Source: Candidatus Babelota bacterium (GTDB taxonomy: Bacteria; Babelota; Babeliae; Babelales; JAHIUU01). Taken from it: a DNA stretch of 64,000 bases. How positions within the stretch are numbered: position 1 is the stretch's first letter; each line of letters starts with the position of its first letter. The notes below the pieces were generated by a model. It had not been told where the DNA came from, searched no databases, and saw only the letters and a list, made by a program, of their open reading frames with translations. Of this stretch, positions 4,345-62,928 are shown piece by piece. The stretch is taken from contig JAHIUU010000003.1 of assembly GCA_018817025.1 (NCBI GenBank), forward strand, positions 16,854-80,853, read 5' to 3'. The translations under genes and the position numbers were made by a program.

Positions 4345-4379
4345 GCTGGCAGGATGGCAGTCGCCCTAGGGGGGCTCCC
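4302..4379. repeat. GC-rich REP-like palindromic element, left flank of the transposase
   Basis: CCTAGGG (4302-4308) pairs with CCCTAGG (4339-4345) around an inner CCC-TGCG-GGG hairpin. It is followed by GCAGTCGCCCTAGGGGGGCTCC (4358-4379), which reappears inverted at 4834-4855. Confidence 0.75.
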
Positions 4380-4405
4380 GTCGAATGGTTTGAGAAAGGG
4401 TTTGC

Positions 4406-4822: not shown

Positions 4823-4833
4823 CAAACGCTATA

Positions 4834-4855
4834 GGAGCCCCCTAGGGCGACTTGC
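4834..4855. repeat. REP-like inverted repeat, right flank of the transposase
   Basis: The reverse complement of GGAGCCCCCTAGGGCGACTTGC matches 4358-4379 apart from two single-base indels. Confidence 0.75.
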
Positions 4856-4874
4856 TCAGGATACACAAAACATT

Positions 4875-29325: not shown

Positions 29326-29885
29326 AGCTTCCCCTTCGAAATAGAGTTAAACAGTTCAAATAATTCACGTTCTAATTTGTTATATCTTTCTTTTAGTGGT
29401 TTAAGTTCTATGAGCATCTTTTTTATTGTGATTTCTAGTGTTGCGCTCTTAAGATTTAGGTGTAGTTGCTTAGAAGTTAGCCTGCCGAATTCTATTGTGT
29501 CTGTTGGATTTAGTCGGGAAATATTTTCTCGTATTTTTCTCATATCTACTTTAATAGATTGTTTTTGATCGAATGGTTTTTTGAATTTTGCTCTGATAGC
29601 GTCGATTTCTCTTAACGTTTTCTCGACATTCTGCACGATTTGATCCCACTCGACCAGCTTGTTAGTAAGTGAAAAATCGTCTCCAGCATTTATTTCTTCA
29701 GCCGTTTTGAAATAGCACAGCTGCCTGAGTTGAGGGATATTCGGGGCGTATTGTTGTTTTGATACCGCACGAACAATTTCGTCTCGGGGTATTTCGCCAA
29801 GTAAGAGGGAGATGGAAAGAGAAGCGCCCAAGACAGAGCTTTTAATTAATTTTTTCACGAGCCCCCTTTTAGCTAAAAAATACAA
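29322..29885 (-). CDS. Hypothetical secreted protein (187 aa), paralogue of the downstream gene
   Basis: Leader 'SSVLGASLSISLLLG'. 'FKTAEEINAGDDFSLTNKLVEWDQIVQNVEKTLREI' aligns with the 161-aa ORF. The two genes overlap by 4 nt. Confidence 0.6.
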   Translation of the reverse strand: MYFLAKRGLVKKLIKSSVLGASLSISLLLGEIPRDEIVRAVSKQQYAPNIPQLRQLCYFKTAEEINAGDDFSLTNKLVEWDQIVQNVEKTLREIDAIRAKFKKPFDQKQSIKVDMRKIRENISRLNPTDTIEFGRLTSKQLHLNLKSATLEITIKKMLIELKPLKERYNKLERELFELFNSISKGKL

Positions 29886-29944
29886 CTAGAAAGTTATGTT
29901 GTTATTATAGTACTATAGAAGGGTTGCTGAGGGCAAGATTCTTG

Positions 29945-31216: not shown

Positions 31217-31244
31217 GATTGTCCTTTGCTAATTTGTCGTTCAG

Positions 31245-34016
31245 TTATTCGTTGACCCGTATTCCCCAATCCCCTGGAATAACCCAGGCGCCCGAAGCTG
31301 TGTTTTGTACGGGGATTCCGGCATTGTGTGCGCTTGAATCAAGTCCTAGCGGTAACCTGCGATCGCTGGCGCGTACGCTAAACTGTGTTGAGGTGATGTT
31401 GACTTTTCGTCCGTATCCTGTTCGGTCAAAATGTTTTGGAAGGGTGTGGTAGCCAAAGGTTCCATCTGGAACGAACGTCGTTCTCAGTTCTCCAAATGCA
31501 TAGTAGTGGTCACGACTTCTTTCGGTGATCGCCTGTATTGTGTTGTCATCAACCGTGCCGGTTGGATTATTTACGGTAAATCGCAGAATGGTTGCAAGAT
31601 CGGTTGTCATGTTTGCCGAAACGGCGTACAGGTTGCCTCCACCATCAAACGATCCTTTGCTCAACGATTGCATTGAAAGATTGGTAACTTGACCCAAAGT
31701 ACGATCAGATTTCGTTTTCACCTCAGTCCATGAGCTGCCTGATTTAATAGTCTGACCGTTCGATGTTCGATACAGTCCCGATGTTGTTGCAAGCATTCCT
31801 ACGTTGCCAGAAACGAGAAAATCCAAGAGCGAATCGTTGGAGGATACAGGTTGAGCTATAACGGTAGCAGTTAGGGCGTCAGGACTGGTGTCTTTAAACT
31901 TATCAGCGTCCATCGCAATTCTATAGAGCGCACGTGGCGTGAGTACGTAGAGATACTCGTTATCGCAGACCAGTTTATGGACTCGGGAAAAATCGCCAAT
32001 TTCTTTAAATGTAAATCCTGGTGTTGAGATATTGTTTGTGAGGTCGTCGAGCTGAGTCCAGCCTGTTCCATCAGACCCCTTGCGTAGGACCGCGGCGCCG
32101 CCATACCCACCGACAAAAAGCCAGCCTTCGTCTGTATCAGAAGAGAGCGATGTTGCTGCACAGCATATTGGTCCGATGTTTTGTAGGTCGTTGTTGTTAA
32201 AAATTTTGACGTTGTCCACTAGATTTGTTGAGAAGTCTGTTCCTGACGTTGGAACGAATACCCCGTCAACTTTTCCTGATCGAATAAGGGCGACTTTTTG
32301 ATAACCGGTTGCCACCATCATTGAGAATTCGTCTTCGAGAAAGCTTGCTGTTTTTTCATCGAAGTTAAAGAGTTGGTGTATGCCGCCAATTTCCTTAGGG
32401 AGCTCTAGGACAAGCTTCTTGTGTAAGTTGCCCAGTAATTCTGTGTCATTTTGGCTCCAGAGAGTTGTTTTTACGGTGTCTCCGGGGTTGTTTGTTTGTG
32501 TTAGATACCAAAACTGTCCTGTTTCTATGTCGATATGTGCATTTAAAACAGGATCCGTTGAACCCATAACGCGTTGCCATGGTGTCCAGCCTCGTATTAG
32601 GCCGTCTTCATCGAATATCGCTGTGCTTTTAAATATTCCCTTGGCGTTTTCGGCGCTGCCGGCACAGCAGGCGTAGACGGCATCACCCAGTGTGAACATG
32701 TTTTCGACGGTGTCGGGGACCGTCCCTTGGCCCGTCTTGGCTTCAGCGTCGGTTTTTGTTCGAAGCTCACCAGGTATAGTAGGCGCGTCTTCCTGTGTAA
32801 CAGAATCTTTTTTTGCGAGGGTTCCTATGAGACTCTTATCATCAGAAGTTGTTATAATTGGCAGCGCAAACAGTTCGGTTTTTATAATAGAACCTAAATT
32901 ATTATAAATGTTTCCGTTTGCGATTAGATATGCTTTTCCTGTACTGGTGTACATGGTTTTGATGTTGTGAATGGCAACATGCTCGTCTGGAGCAGTGATG
33001 AGCGTATCTTTGTGAAATGCGACAATCTTATCCGTGGCCGTATCTGTTCCGATAACGCTTGCTGGAACGACCGGCTCAAGAATAAGCTTATCTCCATCCA
33101 TTCTTCCGACAAGAACACCAGAAATAAACGTTGAATCATTAGAGTTAATTTTTCCCTGTAGTCCAATGAAAAGTCTCTTGAGAATCGAATCCCAGAACAT
33201 CACTGCGCCATCGAGCAGGTCGATGTTTGTTGCATCAGATCCAGCTACTGTTTTTACGGTAACGGATTTATTGCCTTCTTGGCCTGTTGTTGCATCGATC
33301 GGGGTAAGATCGACGCCGGTCGACTTAACAACGGCGATACCCGAGTTTGTTCCACCGAACGTTGCTTCTTCTGTATGGTTGACCGCCGCAAAGATATGAC
33401 TTGTAGACGAAGCAAGACCCGAAATTCCTCCGGTTTGGTTGCCGTTTGAATCGTTGATTTTTTTTGTGTTTGTTAAAACAAAATCGCCTTTAGTAGCGCT
33501 GAGAACCATAACAATATTTTGGTTGGTTCCTGTTGTATTAGAATCGACGTAATTTGGGTTTCTTGTTGCGGGAACGGCGACTGGATAGGGGCCGGAGAGC
33601 GAGAGGTGAGCGATGTCTGCGTTATAGAGCGGGTTTTCGGTTTTGCCTGACTCTTTAGCACCGTTGCTTTGACTTTGATTGACAAATGCTTTTTGGGGCG
33701 CAAGTGCTAAGAAGTCTAACGTAACCAGGTCGCTGGTTACATTGATAAATGCTCGCGAGAGTGCGTATGTTTTTTGATTTGTATTGGAAGCCCCCAGGTA
33801 AAAATTATTTGCCGACAGAAAGGTGCTGGGGCCAAAGGTGAGTGGGGCGGTTGTTATGACGTCTACGCTTCTGGTTGCAATCTCCACTTCTTCTTTTTCT
33901 ACCGTGGCCATCGTAACCGATCTTGGGCCGCTTGAAAGTGTTGGAAGAACGGTTTGATAGACTCCCATATTTAGGGCCATCGTCACGATTATTGTCAATC
34001 TCGTGTGTCTACTCAT
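31245..34016 (-). CDS. Large secreted/surface protein (923 aa), possible beta-propeller
   Basis: Hydrophobic leader and a T/S/N/G-rich composition. Asp-box-like motifs 'LRKGSDGTGWTQL' and 'GLYRTSNGQTIKSGSSWTEV'. No family was recognised with confidence. Confidence 0.6.
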   Translation of the reverse strand: MSRHTRLTIIVTMALNMGVYQTVLPTLSSGPRSVTMATVEKEEVEIATRSVDVITTAPLTFGPSTFLSANNFYLGASNTNQKTYALSRAFINVTSDLVTLDFLALAPQKAFVNQSQSNGAKESGKTENPLYNADIAHLSLSGPYPVAVPATRNPNYVDSNTTGTNQNIVMVLSATKGDFVLTNTKKINDSNGNQTGGISGLASSTSHIFAAVNHTEEATFGGTNSGIAVVKSTGVDLTPIDATTGQEGNKSVTVKTVAGSDATNIDLLDGAVMFWDSILKRLFIGLQGKINSNDSTFISGVLVGRMDGDKLILEPVVPASVIGTDTATDKIVAFHKDTLITAPDEHVAIHNIKTMYTSTGKAYLIANGNIYNNLGSIIKTELFALPIITTSDDKSLIGTLAKKDSVTQEDAPTIPGELRTKTDAEAKTGQGTVPDTVENMFTLGDAVYACCAGSAENAKGIFKSTAIFDEDGLIRGWTPWQRVMGSTDPVLNAHIDIETGQFWYLTQTNNPGDTVKTTLWSQNDTELLGNLHKKLVLELPKEIGGIHQLFNFDEKTASFLEDEFSMMVATGYQKVALIRSGKVDGVFVPTSGTDFSTNLVDNVKIFNNNDLQNIGPICCAATSLSSDTDEGWLFVGGYGGAAVLRKGSDGTGWTQLDDLTNNISTPGFTFKEIGDFSRVHKLVCDNEYLYVLTPRALYRIAMDADKFKDTSPDALTATVIAQPVSSNDSLLDFLVSGNVGMLATTSGLYRTSNGQTIKSGSSWTEVKTKSDRTLGQVTNLSMQSLSKGSFDGGGNLYAVSANMTTDLATILRFTVNNPTGTVDDNTIQAITERSRDHYYAFGELRTTFVPDGTFGYHTLPKHFDRTGYGRKVNITSTQFSVRASDRRLPLGLDSSAHNAGIPVQNTASGAWVIPGDWGIRVNE

Positions 34017-40947: not shown

Positions 40948-41209
40948 CGCAAAGGTAAGAATTTGGGTCGTTCGTTCGATGGCGATACAGGAGTCTCGTT
41001 TCGGGCCGACTGTTCAATAGCAATCCTGGCCGAACCGTTAGGTGAGCCCTGGCGATAAGCGTAGGTGCAAATTTGCCTAAGAATCAATATTTTGGTAAAG
41101 TTAGGCCTGTGTTTTGTACAAGTATAACCTAAAACCTGGCTTTTGGCCCGTATCTCTTGTCTGGGAGCGGAGTTTTTATCAAGAGTCAGCCTTTTTCTAG
41201 AGGTATTTG

Positions 41210-43027
41210 ATGATAAAGAATTCCAATAATATTGCAGTTTCGAGTGCTGAGATGCTCGAAGAGATCTATACGCTTAGCGATGAGATGCGTAGCGAGTTGA
41301 CCGGTTTGTACGATGAGATTTTCAACCAATTCAAGCTTGGGAAAGTTATATCGGGGAGAATTGTTGGCAAAGACAATTCTGGTGTTCTGGTTGATATTTC
41401 CTATAAATCAAACGGTTTGATTCCAGCATATGAGTTCTCTGATTATGAGCTGAGAAAGCTCAATATTGATGACGAAATAGAGGTTTTACTCGATCGATTA
41501 GAAGACGAAAGCGGTAATGTCGTTCTTTCATATCAAAAAGCAAAATCGTTGCGAGCATGGGACCAATTGCTTAGTCTGGCTGAAAAAGATGAGCCTGTTC
41601 GAGGTGTTGTCATTCACAAGGTTAAGGGTGGTTTGAGCGTTGATATCGGGGTTCCAGCATTCCTTCCTGGGTCTCAAGTCGACATGCAGCGGGTAACCGA
41701 TTTCGATCAATTTGTTGGTCAAGAGATTATTTGTAAAATTCTCAAGGTAAACAAGAAGCGCGGTAACGTTATCGTTTCCCGTCGCCGATATCTTGAAGAT
41801 CAACGTTCGGAAGACAAGAAAAAAGCGCTCGAGACTCTCGCAGAGGATCAAGTGCTTCAGGGTATTGTCAAAAACATCACCAATTACGGTGTCTTTGTCG
41901 ATGTTGGTGGTATCGACGGTCTTCTTCATATTACTGATATGTCGTGGAGACGAATTTCTCATCCAAGTGAGCTTGTCAGGATTGGCGATACGATTACCGT
42001 AAAAGTCATCTCTTTTGATAAGAAGCACGAAAAGATCTCTCTTGGGATGAAGCAGCTTGAAGAGAATCCTTGGGAGAAAGTTGAAGAGCGTTATAAAGTT
42101 GGCGCGACGCTCAAGGGTAAGATTTCAAGTATTACCGATTATGGACTTTTTGTTGAAGTTGATCGGGGCGTTGAAGGCCTGGTCCATATTTCCGAAGTGT
42201 CCTGGACTGAACGAATCAATAACTTGTCGAAGCACTACGCTGTTGGTCAGGAAGTCGAGGTTGCTATCGTTGCGCTTGATAAGAACAACAGACGTATGTC
42301 GCTGAGTATCAAGAGGTTGCAGGAAGATCCTTGGAAAGTGGTTGCTGAGCGGTTTAAGGTTGGTGATACGTTTTCTGGACCTATCACAAATATCACAGAC
42401 TTCGGTATTTTTGTTCAGCTGTATGAAGGTGTTGATGGTTTGGTTCACATATCAGATATTTCGTGGACTGAGCATATTGTGCATCCTGCTGATCGATACA
42501 AAAAGGGTGATATTGTTGAGGTAACGATCTTGTCGATCGATCCAGAAAACAAGAAGATTTCGCTTGGAGTTAAGCAACTTGAGACCGATCCATGGGAAAA
42601 TATCGATGCCGAATATCCTATTGGTAAGGTTGTCGAAGGAACCGTTTCAAAGGTTACAAACTTTGGGGCATTTGTTAAGTTGCGAAGCGGAATCGAAGGA
42701 CTGGTCCATGTTTCAGAGCTGTCTGACAAAGAAGTAGAAAAAGTTGATGAGATCGTCAAAGTTGGTCAGACAATGCAGTTTAAAGTTATCAAGTCGAACA
42801 GAGAAGAGCGAAAATTAGGTTTAAGCTTGAAGGCGCTTAGAGAAAAATCGGGTGAAACTTTTGTCCGACAGACTCCAGCGTCAAGATCTGCTTCACAGGA
42901 GAAGCCATCCGGAAGAAGATCTGAATCACGAACTACAACAACAAGCAAAACTCCTACGAAGACGATCATGCAGCAGGCATTTGAGGAGCTCACTCGACGA
43001 CAAAACGATGACGACGAAGAAAAATAG
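41210..43027 (+). CDS. rpsA: 30S ribosomal protein S1
   Basis: Six S1 repeats, for example 'GIVKNITNYGVFVDVGGIDGLLHITDMSW' and 'GTVSKVTNFGAFVKLRSGIEGLVHVSEL'. Confidence 0.95.
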   Translation: MIKNSNNIAVSSAEMLEEIYTLSDEMRSELTGLYDEIFNQFKLGKVISGRIVGKDNSGVLVDISYKSNGLIPAYEFSDYELRKLNIDDEIEVLLDRLEDESGNVVLSYQKAKSLRAWDQLLSLAEKDEPVRGVVIHKVKGGLSVDIGVPAFLPGSQVDMQRVTDFDQFVGQEIICKILKVNKKRGNVIVSRRRYLEDQRSEDKKKALETLAEDQVLQGIVKNITNYGVFVDVGGIDGLLHITDMSWRRISHPSELVRIGDTITVKVISFDKKHEKISLGMKQLEENPWEKVEERYKVGATLKGKISSITDYGLFVEVDRGVEGLVHISEVSWTERINNLSKHYAVGQEVEVAIVALDKNNRRMSLSIKRLQEDPWKVVAERFKVGDTFSGPITNITDFGIFVQLYEGVDGLVHISDISWTEHIVHPADRYKKGDIVEVTILSIDPENKKISLGVKQLETDPWENIDAEYPIGKVVEGTVSKVTNFGAFVKLRSGIEGLVHVSELSDKEVEKVDEIVKVGQTMQFKVIKSNREERKLGLSLKALREKSGETFVRQTPASRSASQEKPSGRRSESRTTTTSKTPTKTIMQQAFEELTRRQNDDDEEK

Positions 43028-43035
43028 GAAGATCT

Positions 43036-43446
43036 ATGGAAGAAAGAACATATGGGATGATCAAGCCCGGCGCGATCAAAGCTGGTTGTACAGGCGAGAT
43101 TATTAGTCGAATTGAGAAGGATGGCTTTTCGATTGTTGCCATGAAAAAGTTGCATATGACTAAAGAGTTGGCAGAGCTTTTTTATGAGGTCCATAGACAG
43201 AGACCATTTTTTGGCGAGCTTGTTGAATCGATTTCAGCAGGGCCGGTTGTTGCGTTGGTGCTTGAAAAAGATGGCGCGATTGTGGCTTGGCGAGAGTTGA
43301 TGGGAGCGACCAACCCAGCACAAGCAGCTGAGGGTACGTTGCGTAAGCTTTATGGTACGAGCATTGGTGAAAATGCGGTGCATGGTTCAGATGCGCCTGA
43401 CACCGCTCGGACAGAGATAGAGCTTATTTTTCCTGAATTGGGGTAG
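43036..43446 (+). CDS. ndk: Nucleoside diphosphate kinase
   Basis: 'ERTYGMIKPGA', 'RPFFGELV' and 'NAVHGSDAPDTA' (active-site His). Confidence 0.95.
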   Translation: MEERTYGMIKPGAIKAGCTGEIISRIEKDGFSIVAMKKLHMTKELAELFYEVHRQRPFFGELVESISAGPVVALVLEKDGAIVAWRELMGATNPAQAAEGTLRKLYGTSIGENAVHGSDAPDTARTEIELIFPELG

Positions 43447-43455
43447 CTAAAAGAA

Positions 43456-43505
43456 CGTCGCCGCCGACATTGTAATTGAAGTGTCGGCGGCGACGGTTTT
43501 GTTTT
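43456..43505 (+). terminator. Rho-independent terminator after rpsA-ndk
   Basis: A 14-bp perfect GC-rich stem, CGTCGCCGCCGACA / TGTCGGCGGCGACG, with a 12-nt loop, followed by GTTTTGTTTT. Confidence 0.85.
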
Positions 43506-43527
43506 AAATAGATATTTTGGGGTTATC

Positions 43528-45255
43528 ATGAAAAAGATAATTTTATTTCTATGTAGTTTGTTACTGAGTACGCAGTCTGTTGTTGGTATGGAGCCAAGCC
43601 CTAAGAGGCGTAAAGTAGACACCCGTGTGGTTGATGGTGATGAGCCCGGTAAGCTTCATGAGCTTGACGATGTCATTCCAGGTGTTTTTAACGATGTTAC
43701 CAAAGACGTAATTTTTTCTTATCTGACTCTTTTTGATTTACTTGGGGCTTTGTGCTTGGTAGGCAAAGACATGAGTTTTTTGGTGGATTTTCATATCAAA
43801 GAAAGCTCACATCCGAATTACGATCGACCCTTTCTAATAAAAATAGATAGTTTTATTTATATGCCTTTGCTTCGATTTATGGAAAAAAACAGGCAGGGTC
43901 TTGTTTTATTCGTTACGCCGAGCTGTTCTATTGAAAGCTGGAATTGTTTTGAAGATTTTCTTTCAGTTAACCGATGGGAAGAGAAGTGGCTTCTTGTTGT
44001 TGGCCTAAGGATTGAAGGGGCTGGCGTTGATTGCGATTTGTTGAGTAAGTTTTCGAATCTTAAGGAGCTGCTTATTGCAAACAACCCAAATCTTAATCCA
44101 GAATTGTTAAGAGATATTCTATCAAACTTGCCCAAGCTTCAGAAGTTCAGTTGCCATTCTATTTTAGCAGAAGAGAACGAGCAGAACGAGATGATTGATA
44201 CTATTGTTGAATATGGTGCGAATCTGAAAGATCTAAAACTTGTTGGTTTTGATTGTTTACAAGGAAATTGTTTTCAGAGGCTTGTCAAGGGGTTGGGAAC
44301 GTTGCAGGCATTGCGATTATACCATTGTTGTGGTGATGATGGATCGTTTGAGAATGACTTAAAAAATAGCGCCGAGCATCTTGGAAATATAAAAGAATTA
44401 GTGATCGAGCATCAAGATTTTCCTGCGGGTGCCTTTATCGATATTGCTGGCTCGTTAAAAAATTTAGAAGTATTAGTCGTTATCAATCCAAATCTTTCGA
44501 ACAGAAGGATTACAGGAAACTTTCTGAGAAACGTTAAGAAGCTAGTAAAATTGCGAGTATTGCGTCTTGAGGGTGCGTATGTTGACGGCAAAGACTTTCA
44601 TGCGCTTGGTGATATTGCGGACTGTTCAAAACTGCGAGAATTGGCCTTTGGTCTTTGGGGCATGTGTCTTCAAGATAATAATAGAAAGATGGTTGTGAAA
44701 GCGCTAAAGCAATTTGTGCAAGCTCTTCCCGAGTTGAAAGTATTCGCAATGGCGTTGAGTGGTATCAGTGCTGAAGATCCAATAGATACCCCTTGTGGCT
44801 GTCTTGACGGTGATTGTAATTGTCCGAACTTTTGTTGGAATATGCCGAATGAAGTTGTTGAGCAGATTGTGAATATGAGGGGCTTGGAAAGTGTTTCTTT
44901 CGGTACTACTACTCGTGTGTCTAAAGAGACAATAGAAAAACTAAAAAATCTTAAAAATCTTAAAACTCTTTGGATAAGATTTCCTGCAGAGAGGTTGGTT
45001 GCTAATTTGCTGAAATCACTACCTGAAAACCTTGGTGTCTTAACGGTTGGTCTTCACAATTCAAGATTGTGTTTCTGTGGTTTTAAGAAAAAGTTTAGCA
45101 AGTATTTTCTAACGGGTTTAAAGCAATGTAGGCTTTTTGGTCTTCGTCAAAAATCTTGCTGTTGGCCAAGGCCGGACATTTTCGATCCCCCAACGCCTGG
45201 CAACAATACAGATCCTGTTGTTAATTACCCAGGTCAGGAAGATTCCGATTTTTAA
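43528..45255 (+). CDS. Secreted eukaryote-like F-box / leucine-rich-repeat (FBXL/RNI-type) protein
   Basis: Signal peptide 'MKKIILFLCSLLLSTQSVVG', 'SPKRRKVD', and an F-box-like 'VTKDVIFSYLTLFDLLGALCLVGKDMSFLV'. Repeated ~25-aa LRRs follow ('LKELLIANNPNLNPELLRDILSNLPKLQKF', 'LKDLKLVGFDCLQGNCFQRLVKGLGTLQAL'...). Confidence 0.75.
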   Translation: MKKIILFLCSLLLSTQSVVGMEPSPKRRKVDTRVVDGDEPGKLHELDDVIPGVFNDVTKDVIFSYLTLFDLLGALCLVGKDMSFLVDFHIKESSHPNYDRPFLIKIDSFIYMPLLRFMEKNRQGLVLFVTPSCSIESWNCFEDFLSVNRWEEKWLLVVGLRIEGAGVDCDLLSKFSNLKELLIANNPNLNPELLRDILSNLPKLQKFSCHSILAEENEQNEMIDTIVEYGANLKDLKLVGFDCLQGNCFQRLVKGLGTLQALRLYHCCGDDGSFENDLKNSAEHLGNIKELVIEHQDFPAGAFIDIAGSLKNLEVLVVINPNLSNRRITGNFLRNVKKLVKLRVLRLEGAYVDGKDFHALGDIADCSKLRELAFGLWGMCLQDNNRKMVVKALKQFVQALPELKVFAMALSGISAEDPIDTPCGCLDGDCNCPNFCWNMPNEVVEQIVNMRGLESVSFGTTTRVSKETIEKLKNLKNLKTLWIRFPAERLVANLLKSLPENLGVLTVGLHNSRLCFCGFKKKFSKYFLTGLKQCRLFGLRQKSCCWPRPDIFDPPTPGNNTDPVVNYPGQEDSDF

Positions 45256-46054
45256 CCCAAGCGTCAAGGCCGATTAAATATTGTAGCAGTCCTTCGAGCT
45301 GCGAGAGCCTGACTGAATTTGGTCCGTCGCAAAGAGCTTTCTCTGGGTTGTCATGGACTTCCATAAATATTCCGGCGATCTTTTGGGCGATAGCGGCGCT
45401 TGCAAGGTTCGGTATAAACTCTCGGTCGCCGCTAGACGAACACCCTTGGCCGCTAGGCCTCTGAACTGAGTGGGTGGCATCAAATACTACGGGTTTGCCA
45501 AATTTTTTCATGATCGGGAAATTTCGATAGTCTACGACCAGGTTGTTATACCCGAAGGTGTACCCGCGTTCGCAAAGCCAGATTGATTCGTTGCCGGTGC
45601 TTGTTGCTTTCTCGAGAACTTTGCTCATTGTTTCAGCAGAGACGAACTGGCCCTTTTTAATATTAACGATTTTGTTTGTCTTGCTTGCTGCTATGAGTAG
45701 GTCAGTCTGCCGGCACAAAAATGCTGGGATCTGGATGACGTCGACATGTTCGCTTACGATTTCTGCATGAGCTGGTATGTGAATGTCGGTGACAACCGGA
45801 ACCTCAAGCTCTTTCCTGACTTTACTTAGAATTTTACATCCCTCATCTAAGCCAACCCCACGAAAATTTTGCAGCGATGTTCGATTCGCTTTATCGAATG
45901 AGCTTTTAAATATAAAGGTGAACTTTAATTTTTCAGATAACTTTTTTAGATGTTCAGCGATTGTAAGTGTGTGTTGTTCGTTTTCGATGACACACGGTCC
46001 GAGAATAAAAAAAAGTGGAGAATTATTGTTTTGAAGACTCTTCAGGTTCGTCAT
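45221..46054 (-). CDS. kdsA: 2-dehydro-3-deoxyphosphooctonate (KDO-8-P) aldolase
   Basis: 'FFILGPCVIE', 'FKSSFDKANRTS', 'VVTDIH', 'IQIPAFLCRQTDL' and 'VVFDATHSVQ'. Confidence 0.9.
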   Translation of the reverse strand: MTNLKSLQNNNSPLFFILGPCVIENEQHTLTIAEHLKKLSEKLKFTFIFKSSFDKANRTSLQNFRGVGLDEGCKILSKVRKELEVPVVTDIHIPAHAEIVSEHVDVIQIPAFLCRQTDLLIAASKTNKIVNIKKGQFVSAETMSKVLEKATSTGNESIWLCERGYTFGYNNLVVDYRNFPIMKKFGKPVVFDATHSVQRPSGQGCSSSGDREFIPNLASAAIAQKIAGIFMEVHDNPEKALCDGPNSVRLSQLEGLLQYLIGLDAWVKNRNLPDLGN

Positions 46055-47314: not shown

Positions 47315-48037
47315 CTATAATTTGTTGATCAGTCGTTGTATTTCTTCTGAGAATCGCTTGATTTGTTTTGCATGGTACTCGATTGTATCGTGTGCGTTCT
47401 TGAGAGTTTCTGTTGATGCTTCCCGCGTGAGCTGGTCGATTGTGGCTCTCATTGCTGCTAGGTTGGCTTGCTGACTCTGGGTGATACTAACAACATCAAG
47501 AAGCATCCTCTTCTTGGATTTTTCTGCTGCATCAATTCTATTGGCAAGCAGATCCAGTTTGAGATTAAGAATGTTCATCTGATGATCGTAGTCGATAATA
47601 GAACGAGTTATTTCATAATCGGAGGAAGGGAGTTTTGCGACGACCAACTGTAAGTTGTCAATTGATCGGTCAAGTTCGTCGAGCGTCTTATCATAACTTC
47701 TGATTGCTGTCTCGGCCTGTTCTTTTTCTGTTTTTAGGGGATCTTTTTTAGGGCGGGATGATCGGGTTGAGGCGATTGTGAACCACAAGCTAGGTCCCAA
47801 CAACCCATACGGATAGCCGTACCATCCGTCTCGGCGATACCCACGATAACTGCGGTGCCCCATGTGGCCGCGATAACTGCCACGGCCACCATGGCCGCGA
47901 CGGGCAACTCTTACTACTGGTCCCCTTGATCTGGAGCGCCCGCCTATTTCTTGTGTTGTGCGTGCATCGAGATAGGTTCCGAAGAACATGAAGCAGAGCA
48001 GTAAGCCTCCTAAAATTTGTTTTATTTTTATATTCAC
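47315..48037 (-). CDS. Hypothetical secreted protein with an R/G/H/Y-rich segment and a coiled coil
   Basis: It has a signal peptide. 'RSRSRGPVVRVARRGHGGRGSYRGHMGHRSYRGYRRDGWYGYPYG' is followed by ~130 aa of coiled coil. Confidence 0.6.
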   Translation of the reverse strand: MNIKIKQILGGLLLCFMFFGTYLDARTTQEIGGRSRSRGPVVRVARRGHGGRGSYRGHMGHRSYRGYRRDGWYGYPYGLLGPSLWFTIASTRSSRPKKDPLKTEKEQAETAIRSYDKTLDELDRSIDNLQLVVAKLPSSDYEITRSIIDYDHQMNILNLKLDLLANRIDAAEKSKKRMLLDVVSITQSQQANLAAMRATIDQLTREASTETLKNAHDTIEYHAKQIKRFSEEIQRLINKL

Positions 48038-48045
48038 GAGCCCCC

Positions 48046-48477
48046 CTATTTTTTTATGATGACAACCCCAAGCGCGAGCAATCCTATAAATAGCAACACA
48101 ATCGCTAGTATTAGCATATTGATCGTTCTTTGTGATCGTTGCATCATATGAAACTGTTGCTGCACCATCTGTTCACGTTGTTGAGATTCCATCTTTTGTT
48201 TTATATCGAAAAGTTTTTCTTGTTGTTGCTCTCGCCTCAGCAGCTCTGTTTCTTGTTGAGCTTTCTGTGCCACTTGTTCTGCTTGTCGAGCCTTGCTTTT
48301 TCCTGATCCTGCAATTGCGGTTCCTAGCATCATGCCTCCTGCGAGGCCAGCAACAGCGCCTACCGCGGCATCGCCTCCCCTGTGGTGGTGGCCATAGTGT
48401 CGGCGGTAACCAAAGACGTTTACGCATGGCATAACTAGTGTTGCTGTCGTTATCAAGCTTATGATTAATTTTCTCAT
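48046..48477 (-). CDS. Hypothetical tail-anchored membrane protein (143 aa)
   Basis: Signal-like N-terminus, 'GYRRHYGHHHRGG', Gly-zipper 'AAVGAVAGLAGGMMLGTAIAG', a Q-rich coil, and C-terminal TM 'LILAIVLLFIGLLALGVVII'. Confidence 0.55.
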   Translation of the reverse strand: MRKLIISLITTATLVMPCVNVFGYRRHYGHHHRGGDAAVGAVAGLAGGMMLGTAIAGSGKSKARQAEQVAQKAQQETELLRREQQQEKLFDIKQKMESQQREQMVQQQFHMMQRSQRTINMLILAIVLLFIGLLALGVVIIKK

Positions 48478-49955: not shown

Positions 49956-50930
49956 CTACTTTTCCTTCGGTAGCAGCCGTACGTAATCATCGGCAAGGTT
50001 TTTGGCGATCTCGATCATTTTAGCTCGTTGGCTGGGGTTGAACTCTGGGCCAAAAAAATCGATTGCTTTCCTGCTGCTAAGAATCTCGCTTTGTTCCTGT
50101 TCATTTTCTTCGAGTTGTCTCAGTATAGAACCCGCACGTTTACGTGCCGTGTTTGATTTTTTTATTTTTTCCCGTTTTGAACAACCACATCCACCATAGT
50201 TGAGCTGCTCGGGAGCGAGAGACGCTGTTCGGAAGTGAGTATTCATTTCTTGCTGGCCAAGCCATCCGAGACCAAGGTTGTTGGCATCTTTTGCGAGGTT
50301 TCCGTGTGTTGTCATGAATGACGTTGTTCTCCAGTGACGTTTTTGCCCAATAATACAGTATTTGAGGAGCATGATTTTTTTTGTAGCGTCATCACGGTTT
50401 TCTTCATTATCTATTTTACGCAAGAAACGGATAAGTTTTTGGTTTGACAGTATAGTCTCAAGTTCTTCTGTTTCAGGAGGAGAGTCTCCTGTCTTCAAAA
50501 TATTTTTTATTTCTTTTATCAAAAGTAGGTCTTGCTCAGTGAGGCCATACTGTTCTAGGACGTTCGGTTGTTCGGGGGTATCTGGTTTACCTGTAACATT
50601 GGGTTGCGTTGCCCATTTATAGCCGCATAAAACAGTCCCTGCGGCGCCGGCTCCACCAATAGCTCCAAATATCCAGGCCAGCGTCTTGTATGTTTTTATT
50701 TGGGCGATAATTTTATGGGTTTCCTCTTTTGTTAGCAGTTCTATGAGATCAAGTTTTGTTTCAAGCTCTTTTATTTTCCAAACGCTATAGGCACAGCAAC
50801 TTGCTCCGGTTAGAGCGCTTACGAGTGTTGCGGTTCCCCAGTAGGTATTGCTTTTGGCAAATGACATGGGTGCAAGAGTGATTGACAACAGAATAGTTAT
50901 GACGATTTTTTTAACCAACTCTCTAACCAT
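49956..50930 (-). CDS. Hypothetical membrane protein (325 aa)
   Basis: An SD sequence (GGGGAGAG) precedes the ATG at 50930. It has a leader plus two Gly/Ala-rich hydrophobic segments ('ATLVSALTGASCCAYSVW', 'LAWIFGAIGGAGAAGTVLCGY'), then a charged domain of unknown fold. Confidence 0.55.
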   Translation of the reverse strand: MVRELVKKIVITILLSITLAPMSFAKSNTYWGTATLVSALTGASCCAYSVWKIKELETKLDLIELLTKEETHKIIAQIKTYKTLAWIFGAIGGAGAAGTVLCGYKWATQPNVTGKPDTPEQPNVLEQYGLTEQDLLLIKEIKNILKTGDSPPETEELETILSNQKLIRFLRKIDNEENRDDATKKIMLLKYCIIGQKRHWRTTSFMTTHGNLAKDANNLGLGWLGQQEMNTHFRTASLAPEQLNYGGCGCSKREKIKKSNTARKRAGSILRQLEENEQEQSEILSSRKAIDFFGPEFNPSQRAKMIEIAKNLADDYVRLLPKEK

Positions 50931-51053
50931 TTTTCTTCTCTCCCCAAGAAATAACGGACCTATCGAACTCTGCATATTTATAGTATTCTAGTAGTCTCTT
51001 TAGGCTACTGTGTTTTTTCGTGCGAAGTCTAACAACTAAAATAAACGTGAGAT

Positions 51054-52760: not shown

Positions 52761-53676
52761 CGGATTGACGAGGGGGTTTGTCACGTATGCTATTGAGTCC
52801 GTTCTACAACAAACATACAAAAACTTCGAGCTTCTTATCGTTGACGACGGTTCTTCTGACGATACTCGAGAACTATGCCAAAAATATCTTGCTGACCATC
52901 GTGTAACCTATCTGCATCAAAAAAATAGTGGAGTTTCGGCCGCTCGTAATCATGGTATTAAGAAAAGTTCTGGCGACTATATTGCTTTTCTCGATGACGA
53001 TGATAGTTGGCTACCAGAAAAACTTGAAAAGCAACTTTCTTTTGTTGAAAATCTTTGCGATTCGCAATTTGGGTTGTGCTACACAGCGTTAGAATTTATG
53101 ACGAAAGACGGAAGAAAGACTGGGATTATACAGTCACATCATGCAGAGAAAAATATTTTTAGAGAGATGCTGTATGAAAATATAGTCGATTGTACCTCTT
53201 CAGTACTTGTCCCACGAAGTGTTCTGGATGATGTTGGCTTATTTCAAGAGCATTTATCTTATGCAGAAGATTATGACTTATGGCTTAGAATAGCGAAGAA
53301 GTATCATATTTATTCGATTGACGAGCCGTTAGCTTTATATCGAGAGCATAGCAATAAGCTGTCATCAAATCTGGAAAAAATGGAATTTTATGCTTTGGTC
53401 GTTACGTTTCACGCTTTACAAGATGCTGAATTAATAGATAAAAATCACGTCTTTAACTACATATATAAAAGTCGGGCAGCGTATCGGTTTTGGCTAGGTG
53501 ATTATGATGTTTTTCGTCGCTATGTTCGATTTGCAAAAACGTACGGGCCACTTGGTGTCGTTTTGCGTTTGCGCTTTATGGTCTCGTATGCCCCGTGGTT
53601 TATTCATGGTGTTCGACGGGTAAAAAAATATTTTACTCGTCTCGTTATTTTTTTAATCTTGGGGTCTTGCTTATAA
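52711..53676 (+). CDS. Family 2 glycosyltransferase
   Basis: 'ISVVLPTYNG', 'ELLIVDDGSSDDT' and 'YIAFLDDDD'. Confidence 0.85.
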   Translation: MVVNGAPKISVVLPTYNGLTRGFVTYAIESVLQQTYKNFELLIVDDGSSDDTRELCQKYLADHRVTYLHQKNSGVSAARNHGIKKSSGDYIAFLDDDDSWLPEKLEKQLSFVENLCDSQFGLCYTALEFMTKDGRKTGIIQSHHAEKNIFREMLYENIVDCTSSVLVPRSVLDDVGLFQEHLSYAEDYDLWLRIAKKYHIYSIDEPLALYREHSNKLSSNLEKMEFYALVVTFHALQDAELIDKNHVFNYIYKSRAAYRFWLGDYDVFRRYVRFAKTYGPLGVVLRLRFMVSYAPWFIHGVRRVKKYFTRLVIFLILGSCL

Positions 53677-54593
53677 AAATATTCTTGTGGCCAGAGAGTT
53701 GTTTTTGGTTTTGGTTTTGATATGTCTGTTTGGGGGCAAAGTTTAGCCAGTCTTGGGAAAATATTATATTTATTAAGTACAAGCTTTTTTGCTTGTTCGA
53801 GCGTTTCTATCGATTGTTCGTATGTATTACCTGTGATTACTTGTTCGATAACTTTAAACGCCTGTTCTGGCTTATTAATATCTATTTTGGTAAGAGATTT
53901 TTTTGGAAAATAGTCGTGAATGTTTGGACAGCCATAGTAGATTGGGTGTGACTGGGCAAGATACGAGTCAGAGAGCTTTTCTGTCCAGTAGTGCTCAATA
54001 AAACTATTTTCTAGTGCAATATGGTATTTGTACGGGGCGATAGCGTCCCATTTATCGATAATCGGGTTACGCCCGCGGCCGTAAAAATCGATTCGATCAC
54101 CAAATTTTTCTTGTAACTTTTGTATGAATAGCAGGCGTTTCTTGTGTTCTGTCGTAAAAACTTTATCTGAGCAGATAACAGAAACAAGTTTTGTTTTGGG
54201 GAGTTTTGTTGTTTTTGTAAGCTCACGATAACTTTTCGAAAAAATTTCTTTTGGTGGCTGATAGCCGATCATCCATGGCAGGCTTAGATGTGAAACAATC
54301 GCATTTGGGTGTGATACGTTTGGGTGACAGGTGATAATTGTTTGAAATTGGGCAAGAAACTTGGGATGGTATGTCTTGATTGTCGGCGGTTCGCCTGTTA
54401 TTAAAACAGTGTTTTCTTTTGGGCAAGAGCTGTGTTCTTGTTTTGTTAGGTTCTCGTAGACAACCCAGTAATCACACGACTTACCTTCATGATTACAAAT
54501 AAACGTGTGCTCTCCCCACGTCCCATCTCGATTTGGGGTTTGCCTAATCCAGTCCCACTTGGGACAGCATGAGCTTAATTTAACCGTAATCAT
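53604..54593 (-). CDS. GT10 (alpha-1,3/4-fucosyltransferase)-like glycosyltransferase
   Basis: 'YKYHIALENSFIEHYWTEKLSDSYLAQSHPIYYGCPNIHDYFP' matches the GT10 'FENS...Y.TEK...P.Y.G' core. Upstream is 'KLVSVICSDK....R..FIQKL'. Confidence 0.6.
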   Translation of the reverse strand: MITVKLSSCCPKWDWIRQTPNRDGTWGEHTFICNHEGKSCDYWVVYENLTKQEHSSCPKENTVLITGEPPTIKTYHPKFLAQFQTIITCHPNVSHPNAIVSHLSLPWMIGYQPPKEIFSKSYRELTKTTKLPKTKLVSVICSDKVFTTEHKKRLLFIQKLQEKFGDRIDFYGRGRNPIIDKWDAIAPYKYHIALENSFIEHYWTEKLSDSYLAQSHPIYYGCPNIHDYFPKKSLTKIDINKPEQAFKVIEQVITGNTYEQSIETLEQAKKLVLNKYNIFPRLAKLCPQTDISKPKPKTTLWPQEYFYKQDPKIKKITRRVKYFFTRRTP

Positions 54594-55756
54594 GGTTGCT
54601 TTCTAAACACGTTTTCAAACACCATTTCGAATCGTTTGTGCCAGGTGTGGTCTTTTAGGCAGCGAGCTTGTCCGGCACGACGAATCTTTTCTCTTTGATT
54701 ATCATGTTTTAAATAATATTTTATTTTGTCGACCAGATCGTTTTTGTTGTGATAACAGACGATTTCTTTGCCAATTTCAAAGAACTCTTCCAGTTCTTGC
54801 ATATATTCGGTCATATAGAAGCCGCCAGCCATGGGGACCTCGAAGTCGCGTAGGCGAATCTGCATGATTCGATTTTTTTTCAGATGGGTTTCGCCGCAGG
54901 TCGACAATCCAAGATTTATTTTCGATTGGCTGTACAGTTTTATCATCTTTTGATCAGACAGGATGTTGCCAATAATTTTTTTAGGCAATATTGGGGGGCT
55001 AGGGGAGAAGAGCGTTCGATAGAATTTGTTTTTTAAAATATAGAGTCCCTCTCGTGAAAATAGCTTTTTTAGTTTTAATAGATAGCTTTTTTTAGTTTGT
55101 TTTTGATCTAAGACTGATTGCTCTGTATACAGGTCCCAGTTAATTCCCCAGACACGAACGTCAATCCCGTTATCGAGAAGGTGTTTTATATAGTTGGGGC
55201 GATCACCGTAGGCCTGGCCAACGAATGTGACATCGAATTTTTGTTGGCACTGGTGTGATTTATAAATATTGGGGTTAGTAGCTTCTTGACAGTAGATTGG
55301 CGTAGCCCCTAACTTTTTATAATCGTTCAGTCGAAATTTTTCTGGCACGAGACAGTAGTCATAATGGGGGGATATTTGTGATACGAGATTGAGTTGATAT
55401 GAGCCATTGCAATACCAGTTGACTGTTTTGATGCCCATCGATTTTATTTCATCAATTGTTTCAGGCAAGATGCAGGCGTCGAAAAAGTAGCTAAAAAACA
55501 GATCGATTTTCTTGTTGTCATGTGCCTGTTTTATTTGTGTTAATAGTTCTTGTGAAATTTTTGGACGATTTGTTTTAATAAAAAACTTTTGTTTTGGGTA
55601 AGCTGGATTGAGATTTTGAAACGTTTTTCTCAGGTCATACTCAAATTCGACGACATCATGCCCTAGATCAATCAGGGGCAAATATAGATTGTTTCTCCAG
55701 AGGTTTGATTCAAAAGAGGAATTGGGGGTGGTGTCTGAGGCGTAGAAGATTCTCAT
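54590..55756 (-). CDS. CgeB-family (GT1-like) glycosyltransferase
   Basis: C-terminal 'RLRDFEVPMAGGFYMTEY..ELEEFFEIGKEIVCY.NKNDLVDKIKYYLKHDNQREKIRRAGQARCLKDHTWHKRF'. Confidence 0.6.
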   Translation of the reverse strand: MRIFYASDTTPNSSFESNLWRNNLYLPLIDLGHDVVEFEYDLRKTFQNLNPAYPKQKFFIKTNRPKISQELLTQIKQAHDNKKIDLFFSYFFDACILPETIDEIKSMGIKTVNWYCNGSYQLNLVSQISPHYDYCLVPEKFRLNDYKKLGATPIYCQEATNPNIYKSHQCQQKFDVTFVGQAYGDRPNYIKHLLDNGIDVRVWGINWDLYTEQSVLDQKQTKKSYLLKLKKLFSREGLYILKNKFYRTLFSPSPPILPKKIIGNILSDQKMIKLYSQSKINLGLSTCGETHLKKNRIMQIRLRDFEVPMAGGFYMTEYMQELEEFFEIGKEIVCYHNKNDLVDKIKYYLKHDNQREKIRRAGQARCLKDHTWHKRFEMVFENVFRKQP

Positions 55757-56352
55757 GGTGATGTCTTTTTTGCTGGGGTACCAACGTATGTACCTGGTTC
55801 GGTGATGTTTTTGATGACCGTCGCTCCAGCACCAATAGTAACATTTGAGCAGATAGAAAGGCCATCAATTATTGTGGCGCCAGCACCAACAAAGACGATG
55901 TTTCCGACTGTTGTTTTTCCTGAGATGGTTGCTTTGGGGGCGATATGGCAGTGTTTTCCTATGATCGTATCGTGTTCGATTATAGCACCAGTATTGATAA
56001 TTGTGTTGTCTCCTATGATTGTGGCTGGTCCAATATGACAAAAGTTTCCCACGAAACATCCCCTCCCAATAGTTGCTTTTTTACTGACGTATGACAAAGG
56101 AGATTGTATGGAAATGAGTTTTTTTGGCCCTACACTTTCGTAAATAGTTTTTCTTTTTTTATTATCTCCAATTGTGATTATAGATTGATGTTTTATAGTT
56201 TGCATTGGTTTGCCGCTGGAGAATTCCCAGGCTAAAAAGTTGATTTGTATGAATGGATGTATGAGATTAATTATATCGGCGACACTTTTTGCATGGCCTC
56301 CAAAGCCTATAAGAACGATTGTTTCGGTTTTATCAAACTGTTTTTTGAGCAT
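55753..56352 (-). CDS. NeuD/PglD-family sugar N/O-acetyltransferase (hexapeptide)
   Basis: N-terminal 'IVLIGFGGHAKSVADII' followed by a left-handed beta-helix of hexapeptide repeats. Confidence 0.75.
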   Translation of the reverse strand: MLKKQFDKTETIVLIGFGGHAKSVADIINLIHPFIQINFLAWEFSSGKPMQTIKHQSIITIGDNKKRKTIYESVGPKKLISIQSPLSYVSKKATIGRGCFVGNFCHIGPATIIGDNTIINTGAIIEHDTIIGKHCHIAPKATISGKTTVGNIVFVGAGATIIDGLSICSNVTIGAGATVIKNITEPGTYVGTPAKKTSP

Positions 56353-57463
56353 GATAGTTTGTTTTTTGGACCATAAAAAACTGGGTGATTGTTGTACAAA
56401 TAAAAACTATTTCTTTTTTTGTTAAACCTGGCCAGCTTGGCAGATTGATTCCTCGATTGCTTAGGTCTTGGGCGACTGGGTAGTGCTCGAGGTTGTTTTC
56501 GTTATACATGGGCATGGTGTGGATTGGGTAAAAAAGTGGCCTGGTTTCGATGCCGTTTAGCGTCAATTTTTTTCGCAAGTCTTCTTTTAGAGATTTGTTT
56601 TCGACGAGAATAGAAAACATCCAGTACGAATGATAAGTATGGCTTGCTTGTTTATGATGCTCTATAGGGAGGTAATTTAGTTCTTGTTTGTACAGGGTCG
56701 CTATTGTTTGTTTTTGTTTGAGTACCTGAGTAATATTTTCTAGTTGCGCAAGGCCGATTGCTGCGCAAATGTTTGTCATTCGGTAGTTGTATCCGACTAT
56801 GTCATGCCAGTATTCTTGTTTTTCTGTGAGTCCTTGCCCTTTAAGCTTTTGCACTTTTGCGTATAATGATCGGCTATTGGTAACTACCATGCCACCTTCA
56901 CCTGTTGTGATAGTTTTGTTTCCATAAAAACTATATGCTGCTATATCTCCGAATGTTCCAACGTGTTTGTTTTTGTACTGGGTTCCTAGCGCCTCAGCAC
57001 AGTCTTCGATCAATAAGAGATTGTGTTTATTTGCGAGCGCAACTAGTTTTTCCATATCACATGGATGGCCGTAAAGATGGACAGCCATAATCGCTTTTGT
57101 TCGATGAGTTATTTTTTTTGCAACATCAATAGGGTCCATTTGCCAGGTGTCTTGAAGTGAGTCAACAAATACAGGAGTTGCGTCTGTATACGTGATTGCG
57201 TTGACTGAGGCGATGTAGGTTAGTGTTGGAACAATAACCTCATCTCCTTTGCCAATGTCTAACGCAAGAAGAGCAGCATGAAGGGCACACGTTCCATTGC
57301 AAATGCTTGAGGCGTATTGTATGCCGGTGTATTTGGCAAATTTTCTTTCAAATGTTGTAACAAAATCTCCTTTGGAAGAGATCCAATTTGAATCGAGGCA
57401 TTGATTTACGTATAGTTTTTCGTTGCCGTAAAGAGAGGGTTGATAGACCGGTATTTTTTTCAT
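56333..57463 (-). CDS. DegT/DnrJ/EryC1/StrS-family sugar aminotransferase
   Basis: 'IPVYQPSLYGNEKLYVNQCLDSNWISSKG', 'NGTCALHAALLAL', 'DEVIVPTLTYIASVNAI' and 'SFYGNKTITTGEGG' (PLP Lys). Confidence 0.85.
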   Translation of the reverse strand: MKKIPVYQPSLYGNEKLYVNQCLDSNWISSKGDFVTTFERKFAKYTGIQYASSICNGTCALHAALLALDIGKGDEVIVPTLTYIASVNAITYTDATPVFVDSLQDTWQMDPIDVAKKITHRTKAIMAVHLYGHPCDMEKLVALANKHNLLLIEDCAEALGTQYKNKHVGTFGDIAAYSFYGNKTITTGEGGMVVTNSRSLYAKVQKLKGQGLTEKQEYWHDIVGYNYRMTNICAAIGLAQLENITQVLKQKQTIATLYKQELNYLPIEHHKQASHTYHSYWMFSILVENKSLKEDLRKKLTLNGIETRPLFYPIHTMPMYNENNLEHYPVAQDLSNRGINLPSWPGLTKKEIVFICTTITQFFMVQKTNYHAQKTV

Positions 57464-58401
57464 AATTTTCCAATCAATTTTTTTGCCAAATTAATTGGGC
57501 GCAACAGTTTCTTTTGAAGTTTGCCTTTTGCTATGAAAGCTATCGTTTTTGGGGTTATCGAGTGGACAGAAAGGAATTGTTCTGCTGTTTTGCCTTCATC
57601 AACATATTCTTTGTTTTTTGTTGCCCCGGGATTTTTGCCTGCAGGCCAATTAAAAACCGGATTCCATTTTTTATAAAACGTTTCGATGTCCTGATTTGAT
57701 TCGTTTTTACTTCTGACGCCGACGTTTGCGTAGTTATAATGTTCAACATATGAATTTGGCGAATCACCGCAGACGTATCCCTTTTGGTCTAAGCGGAGGC
57801 ATAGATCGGTGTCAGCGTTGTAGAACTGGTATGTTTTTTCGTCGATGTAGTCGATTTCTTCGAGAGCTTTTCTTAGATACATACCGTGATTAACAAATAT
57901 CTTGTCGAACACTTGTAGAACATGATAGGTGTTGTTTTTTGCCCAATTTTTTTGCAGGAGTGGGAGGTTGCGCCAATAAAACGCAAGGGCCCCAATTTTT
58001 TCTTGATTTTTTAGTTTTGCTTCAAAAAGTTTGTATCCATTTGCGATGGCGTTTGGTACGAGCAAGCAGTCGTCGCTGACCATGCAGACATATTTTCCAT
58101 GGCTACACTTGAATGCGAGATTCATGAAGTATCCCCAGGAACGACGAGTGATTGGTTTATTTTGCCAAGCGCCTCGATTATGTTGGATTATAGAGATAAT
58201 ATCTTTTTGCTGGGTGAGCCATGGGATGGTTTCATCTGTTGATCCACCATCTACGACAATAATTTCTGCCGGAAGTACGAAGCGTTTGAGTTCTTCCCGA
58301 ATATTTTTGATGGTAAGCTTTAAGAAATCATATCGATTATAGGTTCCTAAAACGATTGATATTTGTGGAGAGAGATTAAGATTGTTTTTGTTTTGCATCA
58401 T
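57460..58401 (-). CDS. Family 2 glycosyltransferase (copy a)
   Basis: 'ISIVLGTYNRYDFLKLTI', 'IIVVDGGSTDET' and 'SDDCLLVPNAI'. It is a paralogue of 62020-62925. Confidence 0.8.
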   Translation of the reverse strand: MMQNKNNLNLSPQISIVLGTYNRYDFLKLTIKNIREELKRFVLPAEIIVVDGGSTDETIPWLTQQKDIISIIQHNRGAWQNKPITRRSWGYFMNLAFKCSHGKYVCMVSDDCLLVPNAIANGYKLFEAKLKNQEKIGALAFYWRNLPLLQKNWAKNNTYHVLQVFDKIFVNHGMYLRKALEEIDYIDEKTYQFYNADTDLCLRLDQKGYVCGDSPNSYVEHYNYANVGVRSKNESNQDIETFYKKWNPVFNWPAGKNPGATKNKEYVDEGKTAEQFLSVHSITPKTIAFIAKGKLQKKLLRPINLAKKLIGKL

Positions 58402-62925: not shown

Positions 62926-62928
62926 AAG

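Follow-up and report, generated by a model that had tools for sequence, protein, structure and literature searches.

A probably Sec-exported orphan leucine-rich repeat protein without a detectable F-box in a genome labelled Candidatus Dependentiae

Introduction

Bacteria of the Dependentiae (TM6) are protist parasites whose core genome includes components of the type II secretion system (T2SS) and from which proteins of the F-box, LRR, WD40, TPR and ankyrin types have been reported (PMC4776705). In the cultivated member Chromulinavorax destructans, signal peptides are found on 44% of the coding sequences and on 78% of the ankyrin proteins, and ORFans are enriched among the secreted proteins; its cells make their way into the cytoplasm of the host and release outer-membrane vesicles (PMC6561590). 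Here we analyze a gene for a leucine-rich repeat (LRR) protein in the genome of an uncultured bacterium, which GenBank labels Candidatus Dependentiae. It lies at positions 43528-45255 of a 64,000-nucleotide stretch of contig JAHIUU010000003.1 (the window), and its product is filed as MBU1007652.1, hypothetical protein KKA53_01060. An earlier note, made from the DNA letters, had read it as a secreted F-box/LRR effector carrying a nuclear localization signal (NLS) and aimed at the ubiquitin system of the host. One part of that reading stands, as we find a real and probably Sec-exported LRR protein of eukaryotic style. The F-box and ubiquitin part fails. We put the probability at about one half that the protein is exported by Sec and acts as a binding protein on a host target at or beyond the cell surface.

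Several described systems are close enough to be compared. The protein studied here resembles the signal-peptide repeat proteins and secreted ORFans of the Dependentiae, such as the ankyrin proteins of C. destructans (PMC6561590, PMC4776705), in that it appears to combine a Sec leader with eukaryote-type interaction repeats, has no homologues and is encoded in a genome with T2SS-type machinery. It differs in that its repeats are LRRs and in that it stands alone as a single-copy orphan, without an expanded family around it, with the added caution that the phylum of the genome is the label of its submitter. A second comparison is with the F-box/LRR effectors NEX1a of Neochlamydia (PMC4209131) and GALA of Ralstonia, which also come from eukaryote-associated bacteria and are likewise built from a short N-terminal module with the LRRs C-terminal to it. 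The F-boxes of NEX1a are readily recognized by Pfam, with 45-57% similarity to eukaryotic ones, and NEX1a proteins are type III substrates that form large paralogous families (PMC4209131). NEX1a and GALA proteins lack Sec leaders and occur in large families, whereas the protein studied here has a predicted Sec leader, fails the F-box test and has no paralogues.

The eukaryotic FBXL proteins (SKP2, FBXL2, TIR1/COI1 and D3/MAX2) share the helix-backed class of LRR, and the structural matches to them reach E-values around 1e-8 to 1e-6, although with a low-confidence model as query. Beyond the generic LRR pattern there is no homology to them, no F-box is detectable, and the likely signal peptide has no counterpart in FBXL proteins. 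The internalins of Listeria, LRR proteins of Legionella (PDB 4q62) and YopM of Yersinia are likewise bacterial LRR scaffolds for the binding of host proteins, and internalins are also Sec-led. However, the repeats of internalins and YopM are 20-22 residues long without full convex helices, while the units here are of 24-29 residues and resemble those of ribonuclease inhibitor (RI), and there is no sequence homology.

Results

Roughly two thirds of the protein is predicted to consist of about 13 helix-backed LRRs of the RI/FBXL structural class. Coordinates are those of the window, and all features within the LRR gene are on the forward strand. Pfam matches LRR_14 at E = 4.8e-10, with a score of 39.2 bits that misses the curated cutoff of 40 bits by 0.8 bit. 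Thirteen clear units anchored on LxxLxL can be laid out over residues 155-535 (43990-45132), with lengths of 23-34 residues apart from one unit of 50. N-terminal to these, from about residue 100, there may be two or three degenerate units more. A single-sequence AlphaFold2 model has an overall pLDDT of 48 and shows alternating strands and helices at pLDDT 50-80 over residues 170-510. When this low-confidence model was compared with the Protein Data Bank (PDB) using Foldseek, only LRR solenoids were returned, among them the LRR domain of NLRC4, FBXL2, COI1, D3/MAX2, internalins, a Legionella LRR protein and ribonuclease inhibitor. BLASTP against the LRRs of SKP2 gave a pairwise E-value of 0.003. 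Tandem units of a strand and a convex helix that form a solenoid, as expected for RI-like or Cys-containing (FBXL-type) LRRs, are thus what the model and the unit spacing point to, and the earlier count of about 14 repeats of the RNI/FBXL type was right.

The repeats had also been described as rich in Cys. As to composition this holds, since the 22 Cys residues make up 3.8% of the protein compared to a window mean of 1.7% and make the gene the most Cys-rich credible one in the window, but only 2-3 of the 22 fall at the consensus position of Cys-containing LRRs. The pattern CxCx4CxCx3C is found in an insert, TPCGCLDGDCNCPNFC (residues 421-436, 44788-44835), that lies inside the only 50-residue unit, is modeled at pLDDT below 50 and has no Pfam match. 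This loop could be a metal-binding or disulfide knot. The Pro-rich, acidic C-terminal tail (residues 540-575, 45145-45252) is modeled with low confidence, has no Pfam match and is probably disordered. No further domain was found with Pfam (whole protein and fragments), NCBIfam, PADLOC or PHROGs, and by these profiles the protein has no detectable catalytic or adaptor domain. Two other candidate identities were rejected, an E3 ligase of the IpaH/NEL type because no C-terminal domain follows the LRRs, and an NLR-like defence protein for want of an NTPase domain and of any PADLOC match.

Whether the protein has a signal peptide depends on its start codon, and here the annotations differ. The NCBI gene model begins with the ATG at 43528 and gives 575 residues, while the JGI model begins at M21 (43588) and gives 555. 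We listed the 25 nucleotides upstream of all 57 non-overlapping open reading frames (ORFs) of the window and found G-rich Shine-Dalgarno-like motifs at similar spacing before many of them. Such a motif, GGGG at 43519-43522, stands 5 nucleotides upstream of M1 and none stands before M21, so that M1 is favored and is most likely the start of the protein. Read from M1, the N-terminus is MKKIILFLCSLLLSTQSVVG, followed by MEPSPKRRKVD. Its first 20 residues (43528-43587) are most likely a Sec-type signal peptide with the n-region MKK, the h-region IILFLCSLLLST and the c-region QSVVG, which places V at -3 and G at -1 of a cut site between QSVVG and M. The two Lys, the uncharged hydrophobic core of 12 residues and the V/G pair agree with the basic n-region, the h-region of 7-15 residues and the small residues at -3/-1 that are expected for Sec export and signal peptidase I, and the hydropathy over 10 N-terminal residues ranks second highest among the 57 window ORFs. 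The signal peptide was judged by such rules and not by a dedicated predictor. Together with the motif before M1 these features bear out the Sec-type leader of the earlier note. The leader has no lipobox, and a lipoprotein was rejected on that ground.

The F-box did not fare as well. The earlier note had pointed to an F-box-like helix pattern, located at residues 58-85 (43699-43782), and had proposed running Pfam F-box and LRR profiles and a structure prediction. These were run, and while the repeats were recovered as LRR_14 and as LRR-like alternation of strands and helices, no family of the Pfam F-box clan (PF00646, PF12937 and relatives) was found at residues 58-85 at E <= 10, either in the whole protein or in isolated fragments. 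The sole Pfam F-box match is at residues 188-209, within a true LRR, with E = 0.3 and 11.5 bits against a cutoff of 20.5 bits. A match of this kind inside a genuine repeat indicates that Leu-rich periodicity alone can yield such marginal hits. Two single-sequence AlphaFold2 runs, of the full length and of residues 41-267, gave a pLDDT of 29-41 for residues 1-166, values too low to speak for or against a three-helix F-box fold. A sequence search of the PDB with the N-terminal 124 residues found no similar F-box protein; what it did match, squalene synthase at E about 1, is put down to chance.

In the absence of homologues from which a profile could be made, we built an F-box profile of our own from 14 F-box sequences, of which that of SKP2 matched PDB 1FQV at 745 bits. 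In validation this profile found 54 PDB chains at E <= 0.01, all of them F-box proteins and many from families not among the seeds, with scores of 19-72 bits that include the divergent but real F-boxes. In an unfiltered hmmsearch it gave 70 bits for SKP2, compared to 8.5 bits for residues 41-110 of the LRR protein and 6.3 bits for the whole protein. A comparison of profiles with hhalign (residues 21-164) gave a probability of 10.5% over 16 of 44 columns, columns 8-23 against DVIFSYLTLFDLLGAL, which corresponds to residues 60-75 and is at noise level. The resemblance therein covers 14-16 residues and is best seen in IFSYLTLFDLL, set against IFSCLCLPELL of SKP2. The score of 8.5 bits is reached by 4 of 20,000 shuffles of the 41-110 segment, and the LRR protein has the best F-box score of the 57 window ORFs. 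When 9,048 stop-to-stop ORFs taken from unrelated bacterial loci (1.5 Mb in all) serve as a natural background, however, its 6.3 bits correspond to E = 3.4 and eight ORFs score higher. The Skp1-contact segment LPxE[IL]L at the start of helix 1 is absent, with FNDVTK in its place, and the conserved Trp of helix 3 is absent, with M82 or D81 in its place. By these profile comparisons no F-box can be detected, and the resemblance does not exceed what chance gives. As the F-box was the only feature that tied the protein to the SCF (Skp1-cullin-F-box) ubiquitin ligases, the proposed link to the ubiquitin system falls with it.

The NLS of the simian virus 40 (SV40) type that had been proposed is present as a motif. 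PKRRKVD (residues 25-31, 43600-43620) begins 5 residues after the predicted cleavage site as a monopartite, NLS-like basic stretch in which PKRRKV (residues 25-30) contains the K-[KR]-x-[KR] core with a preceding Pro; no other P[KR]4 occurs in the window. Its specificity is nevertheless low. Using our own implementation of PSORT-II-style pat4 and pat7 rules, a pat4 motif was counted in 12 and a pat7 motif in 6 of the 57 window ORFs, three of which have both. Since motifs of this type are so common in ordinary ORFs, we take this one as a lead and as weak evidence.

The protein is an orphan. A word-indexed search of a 5.8-billion-cluster index at E <= 0.001 and at E <= 10 returned nothing but the protein itself, an exhaustive phmmer search of 1.84 billion cluster representatives likewise returned nothing else at E <= 0.001, and no relatives were found in GTDB species genomes, IMG/VR or JGI metagenome contigs. 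Lacking homologues, the protein allows no alignment, no analysis of conservation or selection and no good structure model. Its genomic site could be compared by using kdsA (DAHP_synth_1, 45221-46054, reverse strand), the last gene of a conserved efp-nusB-kdsA block, as a synteny anchor. The closest genomes share 65-70% identity in KdsA and all of them keep the block. In the nearest sampled relative (locus L002) a convergent ndk-rpsA pair follows 62 nucleotides after kdsA. With ndk and kdsA this close together there, the LRR gene is an insertion relative to L002, and by this comparison one specific to its lineage. In three other relatives (L003, L082 and L083) the position beside kdsA holds different lineage-specific ORFs with signal peptides and without Pfam domains, and in L083 it also carries an IS200-type transposase directly downstream of kdsA (L083 6017-6472). 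The site of the LRR gene is a variable spot adjoining the conserved block.

Two further observations concern this spot and its mobile element. In L003, convergent with kdsA, a signal-peptide protein at 4303-5538 on the reverse strand matches the Pfam family Mito_fiss_Elm1 (mitochondrial fission ELM1) at E = 1.6e-12. The window itself has an IS200-like Y1 transposase among core genes at 4406-4822 on the forward strand (PF01797, E = 1.9e-21), which is related to the one in L083.

The placement among core genes given in the earlier note holds, as do its ORF position (43528-45255, forward strand, ATG start, 575 residues) and the 35-nucleotide convergent overlap with kdsA (45221-45255). The ORF is a genuine gene. 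Upstream of it are rpsA (41207-43027) and ndk (43036-43446), and downstream, in convergent orientation, kdsA is followed by nusB and efp. A hairpin like that of an intrinsic terminator (43456-43495, forward strand; 16-bp stem with 11 GC pairs and a T-tail) closes ndk and sets it apart from the LRR gene. The GC content of the gene is 0.391 and its GC3 is 0.350 (vs 0.422), values that lie 1-1.7 standard deviations under the means of the window. Codon usage is mid-range and comparable to that of the neighboring genes. Given these values, recent horizontal acquisition from a compositionally foreign source was rejected. The only repeat at the DNA level is a 9-bp tandem, AAAATCTTA, in 3.9 copies at 44936-44970, which is in frame and encodes KNLKNLK of one LRR; with no other tandem repeat in the gene, recent repeat amplification was rejected as well. 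Neither Rfam families nor tRNAs were found when the window was scanned for them.

The T2SS genes that had been noted in the window were found again. They comprise a GspD-type secretin (778-2349, forward strand) and, on the reverse strand, a cluster resembling a T2SS or type IV pilus system (19337-24022) with GspF (22799-24022), GspG (22323-22763) and pseudopilin-like ORFs that have N-terminal leaders of the methylation type (21768-22319, 21351-21755, 20471-21382 and 19337-20467). The probable Sec leader of the LRR protein and T2SS-type genes in the same genome are the two features by which a T2SS substrate could be expected from sequence; no sequence motif is known for T2SS-dependent release.

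Other parts of the window also code for proteins with probable leaders. Many signal-peptide-like ORFs without a Pfam family are found at 9790-12910, 24129-26499, 28840-34016 (including an ORF of 923 residues at 31245-34016) and 49956-50975, which fits the signal-peptide-rich and ORFan-rich proteomes of Dependentiae. Between the SHMT gene and efp (47315-48477, reverse strand) there are two or three small signal-peptide proteins with Gly/Arg-rich segments (GGSFAGGLAGGM, or RG/RGH repeats), at least some of which also have coiled-coil-like tails. The two copies in the window have no Pfam family at E <= 0.01, and the arrangement is kept in relatives where the locus extends that far (L002 3949-4750, L082 1010-2090, L083 2408-3764 and L084 1611-2758). 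Finally, a long run of ORFs on the reverse strand at 53604-63789 is slightly AT-richer than the remaining window and includes Glyco_transf_10 (53604-54593) and Glyco_trans_1_2 (54590-55756). The Pfam scan reached 55756, and the run is probably a surface-polysaccharide cluster.

Discussion

The explanation we favor, at a probability of about one half, is that of an orphan LRR binding protein that a protist-associated bacterium exports by Sec and that acts on a host target at or beyond the cell surface. The leader would be cleaved after G20 as the protein crosses the inner membrane, and exit from the cell, or display on its surface, would then make use of the T2SS-type machinery whose genes lie in the window, or of outer-membrane vesicles. 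The concave face of the solenoid would bind a protein of the host. Substrates of the T2SS of Legionella are able to reach the host cytosol (PMC5478897). Should the bacterium, like Chromulinavorax, live free in the cytoplasm of its host, the protein could be carried into the nucleus by PKRRKV, which would be exposed close to the mature N-terminus. Among the bacterial LRR scaffolds named above, YopM is one that reaches the nucleus. Because no F-box is detectable, the protein would act as a binder or decoy rather than as an SCF substrate adaptor.

Several points weigh against this explanation. The Dependentiae label is the submitter's, the nearest relatives by kdsA are labelled only 'bacterium' and 'Pseudomonadota', and targeting of a host is inferred only from the lifestyle of the lineage and the class of domain. 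An orphan gains no support from conservation or selection. The leader itself is read by rules alone, and the JGI gene call removes it. Additionally, basic residues early in the mature part mildly disfavor Sec export, and the first 18 mature residues have a net charge of +1 with KRRK at +6 to +9, a cluster that could instead hold an uncleaved membrane anchor in place by the positive-inside rule. The 22 Cys residues would also have to pass through an oxidizing periplasm.

A somewhat unlikely alternative, though one to be taken seriously, is that the protein is exported by Sec and then stays in the periplasm or outer membrane, where it would serve the bacterium itself in adhesion, envelope organization or docking to the host surface without ever entering the host cytosol. 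In favor of this, no targeting signal other than the signal peptide can be read. Among bacterial LRR proteins that carry Sec leaders, moreover, many are located at the surface, as are the internalins, which Foldseek matched. The neighborhood also includes envelope genes (kdsA, MurJ, MlaD, OmpH and glycosyltransferases), but the LRR gene is an insertion that lies outside the conserved envelope block. Also against this reading, the protein has no lipobox, and Pfam finds neither an anchor for the cell wall or outer membrane nor a domain of the beta-barrel or autotransporter type. Helix-backed LRRs of the RI/FBXL class with a high Cys content are in addition more typical of intracellular eukaryotic proteins.

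It is improbable that the protein is not exported at all, either because it starts at M21 and is cytoplasmic or because its leader is an uncleaved anchor with KRRK on the positive inside, which would keep the LRRs in the bacterial cytoplasm. The JGI start would be explained in this way, the 22 Cys would be better suited to a reducing compartment, and KRRK does follow shortly after the hydrophobic segment, giving that flank a charge of +3 compared to +2 on the N-terminal side. Yet the Shine-Dalgarno-like motif precedes M1 only, and an uncharged hydrophobic core of 12 residues would make a short transmembrane helix, with a small-x-small site coming after it. An in-frame MKK, h-region and VVG directly upstream of M21 are also unlikely to have arisen by accident.

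The original proposal, a secreted F-box/LRR mimic, can be spelled out as a protein whose degenerate F-box, at about residues 54-96, docks onto the host Skp1 while the LRRs recruit host substrates for the SCF ligase and the NLS takes it to the nucleus. This now seems very improbable. What speaks for it is the similarity of IFSYLTLFDLL to SKP2 at a position directly N-terminal to the LRRs, as in FBXL proteins, together with the top rank among the window ORFs and the rarity of shuffles that reach the score. F-box and LRR effectors are also known from amoeba symbionts (PMC4209131). These points are met by the larger set of natural ORFs, in which the score is unexceptional, by the large gap to every one of the 54 real F-box proteins, by the hhalign and Pfam results at the site, and by the loss of both LPxE[IL]L and the Trp of helix 3. 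A spurious match of comparable quality at residues 188-209 lies inside a true LRR. FBXL2, COI1 and D3 do appear among the Foldseek matches, but these are generic to LRRs and include NLRC4, internalins and ribonuclease inhibitor.

More speculative still, and in our view highly improbable, is a 'nucleomodulin' delivered by Sec and the T2SS from a Dependentiae cell that dwells in the host cytoplasm. It would enter the protist nucleus by means of PKRRKV and engage the host SCF or another nuclear complex through a cryptic, highly degenerate F-box-like N-terminal module and possibly a metal-binding CxCx4CxCx3C loop, as an F-box-type adaptor so far removed, by origin or by divergence, that profile methods do not reach it. 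Least likely of all is an ORF that is spurious or decaying and has no function, since the missing homologues, the tail that runs into kdsA and the GC3 of 0.350 vs 0.422 are outweighed by an open frame of 575 codons with a regular repeat architecture and an LRR profile match at E = 4.8e-10, by its own Shine-Dalgarno-like motif after a terminator, and by codon usage within the range of its neighbors.

A practical lesson of this case is that a short Leu-rich resemblance beside LRRs is no ground for calling an F-box, given that the periodicity of Leu by itself generates such matches. Any claim that this protein hijacks ubiquitination would need direct evidence of Skp1 binding. The protein adds to a kind that has already been described, the signal-peptide repeat proteins and ORFans of the Dependentiae, and it opens no new question. 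If it is a host-directed binder, it would be one more example from the large and mostly uncharacterized secreted repertoire of Dependentiae-like parasites, and it would show by example how genes of this kind turn up in variable spots flanked by core genes.

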